Virus record (IMG/VR): IMGVR_UViG_3300021956_000012
DNA: 64,000 bases
DNA from: a virus
Strand: one strand, 5' to 3'
This document shows, one piece after another, positions 22,204 to 22,534 of the stretch. A program made the translations under genes and the position numbers. The notes under the pieces were generated by a model that was given only the letters and a program-made list of their open reading frames with translations, ran no database searches and was not told the DNA's origin. How positions within the stretch are numbered: position 1 is the stretch's first letter; the number at the start of each line of letters is the position of its first letter.

Positions 22204-22534
22204 GTCCCGATCCTCTGCAGAGTTTCAAATCCCTAGAAACAATGTACGATGCGAGATAGGTGAAAGTCCTATCATTAAAATAGATGTACTGATGGTGTGG
22301 TACACTATGGATTTCTAGACCTGCGGATTGTCGTCCAAAAAGCGTAACGAATAATAGGAGTGAAAACTTCTACGGGAGCAAAAAGACACTATAATACCAG
22401 TGTAGGGGCTGGTGGTTATAGTTCAGTATATTTCAGGTTGGGTAAACGAACGTGGTTTACTATTTGGGAACTTTTACCTAGCTGAGCTAAAGGCAATGGG
22501 CGGTTCTAAGATACGGAATATACTGAACTATAAC
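22204..22534 (+). ncRNA. Candidate large structured ncRNA of unknown family
   Basis: ORF-free; nested helices, a T-loop hairpin, a GAAA hairpin and a perfect 18-bp stem 22415-32/22517-34. Confidence 0.6.

Follow-up and report, generated by a model that had tools for sequence, protein, structure and literature searches.

Here we describe a structured RNA encoded in IMG/VR virus record IMGVR_UViG_3300021956_000012, which was analysed as a stretch of 64,000 nucleotides (the window) belonging to a 79-kb viral contig that is complete and has terminal repeats. The RNA occupies positions 22201-22536, following a tRNA-Arg gene and abutting the ribosome-binding site of a gene for a DUF7275 protein. 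It is probably one autonomous RNA gene of a new family found in phage tRNA operons. An earlier reading made from the letters alone (the sequence-only reading) had placed a multi-helix non-coding RNA domain at 22204-22379. Covariation among homologues bears out that a genuine multi-helix non-coding RNA lies here, with other long-range pairings and a later 3' end.

The locus

The following features frame the RNA.

22082..22111, plus strand: sigma-70-like promoter, TTGACT-18-TATAAT, 11/12 consensus matches (consensus scan; a pattern match alone)
22123..22197, plus strand: tRNA-Arg(UCU), CCA encoded (ARAGORN; Rfam RF00005, 63.5 bits)
22536..22548, plus strand: ribosome-binding site AAGGAG and ATG of the DUF7275 gene, abutting the 3' end of the RNA
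22546-23364: DUF7275/DUF7277 gene (Pfam PF23940, E = 2.6e-59), predicted nucleotidyltransferase fold

The putative promoter would drive both tRNA-Arg and the RNA, and a consensus scan found no second strong promoter or terminator from there to the downstream gene. ARAGORN and Rfam both place tRNA-Arg(UCU) at 22123-22197, directly ahead of the RNA as the sequence-only reading had it, and the conserved 5' motif begins 4 nt past the tRNA. That reading was also right that the stretch holds no open reading frame: none is credible, and the record of Limnohabitans phage DC31 likewise annotates none there. Against dinucleotide shuffles, the 188-nt stretch 22198-22385 scored z = -3.17 and the spacer 22198-22548 z = -4.13, so that the fold is better than the shuffled controls. 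Metatranscriptome libraries from two freshwater studies contain contigs that match 22215-22388 and 22261-22462 identically, a weak indication that records presence in RNA libraries and is mute on ends. Run X4 gave no contigs between 22117 and 22544 and run X22 none at all, a lack of cover that is no evidence.

Homologues and their distribution

In the phage database there was a single relative, Limnohabitans phage DC31, 79% identical across the whole spacer. Further homologues were collected through the neighbouring DUF7275 protein, through two motif patterns, and through a third pattern that avoided both invariant loops of the RNA (see below). The first loose pattern gave mostly chance matches among the matches listed, and stricter patterns were substituted. 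Searches with nhmmer confirmed 99 copies, 56 of them distinct, to which 7 further ones were added; the family thus comprises at least 63 distinct homologues from uncultivated phages, plus phage DC31. Pairing counts per position refer to the alignment of the 56 distinct homologues.

All 63 members lie in viral contigs and adjoin tRNAs. A strict pattern run over 596 Gb of bacterial and archaeal genomes returned 71 matches, none of which was homologous by nhmmer; among viral contigs, nearly all of 69 pattern matches were homologous. The family is so far confined to phages, mostly from freshwater samples. Within the window nhmmer found no second copy.

By its sequence the family is new and not in Rfam, in keeping with the statement of the sequence-only reading that it could not be assigned. 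No match to a non-tRNA family in Rfam 15 reached the gathering score, and cmscan of 22100-22600 against the 4227 Rfam 15 models at E <= 10 returned the tRNA and a chance PVX_3 match alone. The paper on DC31 is silent on the region. A 2023 catalogue of 8495 short structured-RNA candidates from IMG/VR (PMC10690425) may contain fragments of the RNA.

The orientation of the RNA is always that of the flanking tRNAs. Among the homologues a tRNA (Arg-UCU, Met, Ala or Asn) or a tRNA-like gene precedes the 5' motif by 4-8 nt, and the 3' end lies 0-5 nt ahead of the next tRNA 5' end or ribosome-binding site. For ten distinct members the distance from the 3' end to the following tRNA (Met, Leu, Ser, Ile or Thr) is -4 to +5 nt, and several of these members sit inside arrays of 8-21 tRNAs. 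In DC31-like phages the RNA end abuts the AAGGAG of the DUF7275 gene, and in about 35 loci the RNA is directly upstream of DUF7275.

The upstream neighbour in other loci can be an odd tRNA-like gene with a long insert and a CCA end, missed by ARAGORN. One or two such genes per phage lie between tRNA-Arg and the RNA in several relatives (L009:1925-2030, L013:2058-2180, L027:1797-1915, L034:1955-2055, L023:1985-2165, L024:2035-2240). They have an acceptor stem, a D arm, a T arm with a GGTTCGA-type loop and an encoded CCA, with 30-60 nt inserts in place of the normal anticodon and variable region.

A conserved pseudoknotted core

Judged by comparison of the homologues, region 22201-22422 is a core of five covarying helices and two covarying pseudoknots (PK1 and PK2) with a riboswitch-type T-loop. 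Its parts, all on the plus strand, are as follows.

22201..22209: nearly invariant 5' motif UUAGUCCCG, whose last two bases open helix P1
22208..22253: arm I, with P1 22208-12/22248-53 (bulged G), P1b 22216-19/22243-46 and H1 22222-26/22236-40
22227-35: arm I loop AAAUCCCUA, containing invariant CCCUA
22255..22273: H2, a 6-bp hairpin with the 7-nt loop UGAAAGU, an FMN/cobalamin-type T-loop (UGNAA)NY (FMN, flavin mononucleotide)
22280..22308: H3 hairpin, 22280-83 and 22286-89 with 22300-03 and 22305-08; loop bases 22294-96 go to PK2
22319..22321: PK2 3' strand ACC, pairing with GGU 22294-96 in the H3 loop
22325..22336: PK1 S1, GGA 22325-27 with UCC 22334-36, enclosing GUC 22330-32, the S2 5' strand
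22337..22384: PK1 loop 3, carrying an optional insert of about 37 nt with a GAAA-capped hairpin, 22355-72
22385..22387: PK1 S2 3' strand GAC, pairing with GUC 22330-32 and contiguous with strand a
22388..22422: extended K hairpin, with strand a 22388-95, K stem 22396-401/22408-13, loop GUAGGG and strand b1 22415-22

Across the 38 pairs outside arm I, 91.2% of alignment cells are canonical, and 29 of these pairs show double-sided changes (322 cells). When the 3' partner was slid by 1-3 columns the canonical fraction fell to 33-49%, and none of 500 column shuffles reached the observed values. G-U pairs outnumber A-C pairs by 179 to 55, which marks the plus strand as the RNA. RNAalifold independently recovered H1, H2, PK1-S2, PK2, the a:b1 helix and K.

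The 5' motif reads UAGUCCCG in 49 of the 63 members and AAGUCCCG in 10, and its columns are invariant in alignment A2. Arm I folds as a single hairpin with CCCUA unpaired in its loop in 45 of 55 homologues, each folded alone for minimum free energy (MFE); its stems differ wholly between subgroups, yet the CCCUA loop is constant. H1 exchanges pair types at individual positions (CG:30/UA:16; GU:24/UA:11/CG:5). H2 is 96% canonical with double changes in five of its six pairs, and the gatagg/cctatc pairing that the sequence-only reading had proposed for it covaries strongly (UA:29/CG:24 and AU:26/GC:26). In H3, pair 22283-22305 (GC:17/CG:22/UA:13) has the top mutual information of the alignment.

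Both pseudoknots covary. PK2 is 95.8% canonical (GC:36/UA:12/AU:5, GC:49/GU:4, UA:25/CG:24), with the variants GGU/ACC, GGC/GCC, UGC/GCA and AGU/ACU. PK1 is of the H type. Its S1 is 98% canonical (AU:41/GC:15) and covaries to GGG/CCC, GAA/UUC and UGA/UCA, with GAAC/GUUC in L041 and UGAC/GUCA in L037. S2 has one varying pair (GC:51, CG:4, GU:1) beside invariant UA and CG pairs; the change, CUC/GAG, is seen as UCUC with GAGA in L033, L035, L039 and L040.

This fold replaces the four nested long-range helices of the sequence-only reading. Their quoted letters and complementarities are all where that reading put them, and the single-sequence MFE fold includes tctgcag/ctgcgga and tgtac/gtaca. Among the 56 distinct homologues three of the four are not kept and the fourth is tied to the optional insert. 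The tctgcag/ctgcgga helix is paired in 4/11 to 51/56 sequences per position and shows no compensation; ctagaaa/tttctag is paired in 16/43 to 50/56, and tgtac/gtaca in 10/56 to 38/56. The outer tcccg/cggga helix is possible in just about 11 insert-bearing sequences and is lost in L322 and L327 (GCCGA), which also bear the insert. The GAAA hairpin at 22355-72 is real, yet it belongs to the insert, is absent from DC31 and most members, and is dispensable; DC31 has no equivalent of 22342-22378, and with it lacks both this hairpin and the 3' strand of tcccg/cggga. Within the insert the basal stem CGU/ACG changes to CGG/CCG in L322 and L327. The former domain limit of 22379 falls in the middle of the pseudoknot loop, and the element extends to about 22536.

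Two further pairings were considered and set aside. AAAUCC/GGAUUU, from the MFE fold, has variable positions without covariation in the alignment. GUCC 22204-07 with GGAU 22325-28, from RNAalifold, is merely compatible, the 5' motif being unchanged where S1 covaries (L041, L037); it is a possible alternative conformer.

At L245:8620-8680, and at the same place on the minus strand in L206, PK1 loop 3 has another insert, in which TTGACA and TATAAT-like boxes suggest a putative internal promoter inside the RNA gene.

The T-loop and two complementary invariant loops

The H2 loop is UGNAA plus two nucleotides in 57 of the 63 members. The consensus for the terminal loop of FMN and cobalamin riboswitches is (YGNRA)NY, about 80% of them UGNAA, in which the first five nucleotides form the T-loop and two bulged nucleotides follow (10.1101/2022.12.26.521914). 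The H2 loop fits this consensus. The sequence-only reading had likened the hairpin to the tRNA T arm; it is indeed of T-loop type, of the riboswitch and not the tRNA UUCRA kind.

Two other loops stand out for their constancy: CCCUA in arm I and UAGGG in the loop of hairpin K are mutually complementary and invariant in every member, including those retrieved without requiring these loops. The base after UAGGG is A or G, either of which pairs with the U preceding CCCUA. This complementarity points to a candidate CCCUA-UAGGG kissing contact, within or between molecules.

An exact 19-mer of the T-loop hairpin occurs in five other viral contigs, all with tRNA arrays (L002:5222-5240, L003:5711-5729, and also L004, L005 and L006). 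On inspection these are unrelated hairpins, one set behind a small lipoprotein open reading frame and one ahead of a T-run. There the 19-mer forms a hairpin by itself, immediately ahead of tRNA-Leu or tRNA-Thr, and in one case a terminator-like T-run follows. In these unrelated phage tRNA arrays, ARAGORN also calls a tRNA with an 8-nt anticodon loop and the four-base anticodon GAAA (L002:4191-4267, L006:6031-6107).

A terminal stem with strand exchange

The 3' part of the RNA is a long stem that shares one strand with the core.

22415..22536, plus strand: D2 terminal stem b:c, 22415-34 with 22515-34, extendable to 22413/22536; interior 22435-22514 variable

Of 56 sequences, 49 have an ungapped D2 stem of 12-24 bp, its arms occurring in 30 different versions, and complete members all end in a stem of 14-24 bp, mostly 16-22, whatever the interior (3-141 nt). 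Strand c2 (22527-34) is identical in sequence to strand a (22388-95), and in 44 of 49 sequences a and the c tail have in common an identical word of 5 nt or more. Strand b1 can pair with either. Helix a:b1 is paired at four positions in all 56 sequences (CG:34/GC:12/AU:8/GU:2), beside a K stem with double changes in all six of its pairs, and the b1:c2 pairing covaries as well. Because a and c2 are the same sequence and both covary with the shared partner b1, the RNA has two exclusive states.

With all strands free, secondary-structure energies favour the full b:c stem by a median of 5.9 kcal/mol (range 0.6-8.0); when c2 was blocked, b1 turned to a as its partner in 48 of 49 homologues. Taken with the covariation, these energies indicate that selection is keeping helix a:b1, which is not the ground state of the full transcript. 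This helix must then matter in one of three settings: c is still untranscribed, c2 has been removed or engaged, or the core is stabilised by a partner. Since strand a runs on directly from S2 of PK1, a:b1 would stack on the pseudoknot, carrying hairpin K with it.

In L009 and L021 a second D2-type hairpin lies between the c strand and the ribosome-binding site, giving two long hairpins in tandem from the core to the DUF7275 start codon (L009:2396-2507, L021:2398-2507); the stem module can thus be duplicated. The D2 interior itself takes several forms. That of L327 has a T-arm-like stretch GGGGTTCGACTCCCC followed by GCCA, which recalls the tRNAs in the GOLLD linker. A second interior type, in L012, L013, L019 and L041, has about 40-95 nt after the K loop a short frame opening ATGGTGGTGTGTCAG for a cysteine-rich peptide of about 17 residues, which may be coincidental.

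The adjacent DUF7275 protein

A search of PDB with the DUF7275 sequence gave zero matches. Its AlphaFold2 model (predicted local distance difference test score, 91) resembles proteins of the nucleotidyltransferase fold, the closest structures being the MenT1, MenT4 and TglT toxins, ANT(2'') and AbiE-related proteins (Z 5-7; 94-126 aligned residues; root-mean-square deviation 3.2-4.1). Foldseek gave probabilities of about 0.99 with E 0.016-0.08. Conserved residues include G7-S8 and D25-x-D27. There is thus middling support for DUF7275 as a predicted nucleotidyltransferase, and a fold predicted in this way does not establish a link to the RNA.

A probable autonomous RNA gene in phage tRNA operons

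We consider it likely, without being certain, that 22201-22536 is a single autonomous RNA gene, and by analogy we read it as closest in kind to GOLLD and ROOL. The RNA would be transcribed from the tRNA promoter and released by the enzymes that excise the tRNAs next to it: behind the upstream tRNA the work would fall to RNase E or exonucleases, and on the 3' side to RNase P or to a double-strand RNase acting on the b:c stem. The released RNA would be stable and act in its own right, like GOLLD and ROOL, instead of serving as a leader dedicated to one gene. In this scheme the a/b1/c2 exchange would link how the core folds to the condition of the 3' end. A c2 that is present and paired would leave strand a free; if c is unmade, or c2 is cut off or occupied, a would capture b1, and the captured helix would stack on PK1 and bring the K loop up to the loop of arm I. 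Both the T-loop and the location in tRNA islands point to partners related to tRNA.

A family search did not find DUF7275 in five tRNA-array phage records that carry the RNA, these being fragments 15-63% complete in which controls were silent. Together with the second hairpin of L009 and L021, these five records argue that the RNA is not tied to the downstream gene.

Several points weigh against an autonomous gene. We infer the ends, stability and trans targeting of the RNA from sequence. The same holds for the coupling of the exchange to processing, and here a ligand- or factor-driven switch would explain the same data. The proposed kissing contact has complementarity without covariation, its sole variable position (A or G opposite U) staying compatible. 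The RNA-library contigs are no guide to ends, and DNA may be among them. Patterns demanding conserved motifs supplied part of the homologue set, although the motif-independent pattern recovered the same loops nonetheless. The five DUF7275-negative records are, as stated, incomplete fragments.

The main rival, possible although we think it unlikely, is a conformational switch acting in cis, like a riboswitch or T-box, whose 190-nt core would sense a ligand, a protein or a tRNA. This reading accounts for the exchange just as well. Binding would lock a:b1 in its stack on PK1, the K loop being docked to arm I, strip 8 bp from b:c and free the 3' tail, altering the access of ribosomes to the ribosome-binding site or of RNase P to the leader of the next tRNA. 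Mutually exclusive covarying helices that share b1 are the classic design of aptamer P1 versus platform, and the core is riboswitch-like in its FMN/cobalamin-type T-loop, its pseudoknots and its invariant junction nucleotides; a hairpin loop could dock as the regulatory kissing loop of cobalamin riboswitches does. A switch would also suit an element that always ends 0-5 nt ahead of a ribosome-binding site or tRNA 5' end. Furthermore, a:b1 is 0.6-8 kcal/mol weaker than full b:c without extra stabilisation, so that something must favour it. Other features count against a switch. The Shine-Dalgarno sequence is free in both states (helix overlap <=1 nt), there is no U-tract terminator behind the stem, and known riboswitch models give no match (Rfam, E <= 10). 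The downstream units are mixed (nucleotidyltransferase mRNA; tRNA-Met, Leu, Ser, Ile or Thr; other RNA genes; a second hairpin), with no common regulon.

Also unlikely are two bolder forms of these ideas: a sensor-gated processing switch or, alternatively, a small RNA-only assembly joined by the complementary invariant loops. As a sensor, the core with its T-loop, two pseudoknots and loop-loop dock would bind a small molecule, tRNA or protein, and the exchange of a for c2 would set access to the downstream RNA, which is a tRNA precursor in large phages and the nucleotidyltransferase mRNA in DC31-like ones. If true, it would be the first riboswitch-type control of tRNA maturation; an RNA-only assembly would be a miniature counterpart of ROOL or GOLLD.

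It is improbable that the RNA is a partner of the adjacent DUF7275 protein in DC31-like phages. In that reading the protein would be a MenT/AbiEii-like enzyme acting on RNA 3' ends, and the RNA could serve it as substrate or guide or could neutralise it as an RNA antitoxin does. The two are directly adjacent in about 35 loci, the model is nearest to nucleotidyltransferase-fold proteins that include toxins, G7-S8 and D25-x-D27 are conserved, and pairing of the RNA 3' end can toggle. Against this, the RNA occurs in the tRNA arrays of other phages, with tRNAs on both sides and DUF7275 not found in the available records; tandem repeats like those of known RNA antitoxins are absent; and the fold match is middling, with the activity a prediction from the model. 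We give hardly any credence to a DNA-level element (origin, packaging or recombination site) or a chance spacer structure, since a region rich in inverted repeats whose single-sequence fold is moderately better than shuffles (z -3.2) would leave unexplained the compensatory changes in 29 of 38 pairs that 0/500 shuffles match, the excess of G-U over A-C (179 vs 55), unexpected for a strand-symmetric DNA hairpin, the covarying pseudoknots, the fixed orientation relative to tRNAs and the presence of the sequence in RNA libraries.

Comparison with known RNAs

Several known classes were compared with the RNA and found not to apply. ARAGORN and RF00005 find tRNA-Arg and tRNA-Met alone, with no cloverleaf for the RNA, and position 2 of the H2 loop is G, not U as in the UUCRA of the tRNA T arm. 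A T-box has no Rfam match here; there is one T-loop and not a double one, and the H3-loop UGG lacks conservation, pairing in PK2 instead of playing the T-box UGGN role. RNase P RNA models give no match at E <= 10 (cmscan). As to ToxI-like RNAs, Tandem Repeats Finder reported just a 2-copy 10-mer inside the stem.

The FMN (RF00050) and cobalamin (RF00174) aptamers share with the RNA a 7-nt terminal loop (YGNRA)NY, mostly UGNAA, a compact pseudoknotted core of about 200 nt, and a hairpin loop that here could dock on the core beside a switching helix. In cobalamin riboswitches the L5-L13 kissing loop docks next to the switching helix. Unlike these aptamers, the RNA matches neither model (E <= 10), has no B12 box and no FMN six-helix symmetry, stands ahead of no coherent gene set and often between tRNAs, and has neither Shine-Dalgarno sequestration nor a terminator.

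Phage T4 species 1 and 2 (rnaC, rnaD) are small stable RNAs, with function unknown, inside the T4 tRNA gene cluster. Their maturation starts from the precursors that also yield the tRNAs. They are about 120-140 nt long with simple folds, whereas the RNA described here is larger and has pseudoknots and a T-loop.

The closest likeness is to GOLLD (RF01998) and ROOL (RF03087), as the sequence-only reading had suggested; the kinship is one of habit, that of a phage RNA near tRNA islands. Like the RNA here, GOLLD and ROOL are phage-encoded and often lie at tRNA islands; one GOLLD is downstream of tRNA-Met, and GOLLD linkers sometimes hold tRNAs. They have many helices, pseudoknots and kissing loops (the kissing here being a candidate) and a conserved scaffold around a variable linker, matched here by the D2 interior of 3-141 nt. 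With regard to the RNA-only multimeric cage of GOLLD and ROOL, the complementary CCCUA and UAGGG loops could act within or between molecules. There is no homology, cmscan giving no match even at E <= 10. The RNA also falls far short of them in size: its core measures about 190 nt and the whole 210-360 nt, whereas GOLLD and ROOL span about 500-800+ nt. The three-strand exchange at the 3' stem is not described for them.

Phages have repeatedly put large RNAs with elaborate folds beside their tRNA genes. To our knowledge, GOLLD and ROOL are the known RNAs of this sort, and even their cryo-electron microscopy structures have not revealed function. The RNA described here is a third family with this tRNA-side habit, unrelated to both and much smaller. 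Its secondary structure is well determined, with two pseudoknots, a riboswitch-type T-loop and a conserved bistable 3' stem, and the three-strand exchange is a clean natural case of a selected alternative RNA fold. Also, one member resides in the cultivated Limnohabitans phage DC31, whose host, Limnohabitans sp. DCL3, is culturable. With the small size of the RNA and the DC31 isolate, the question of why phages carry such RNAs becomes open to genetics, probing and structure determination.
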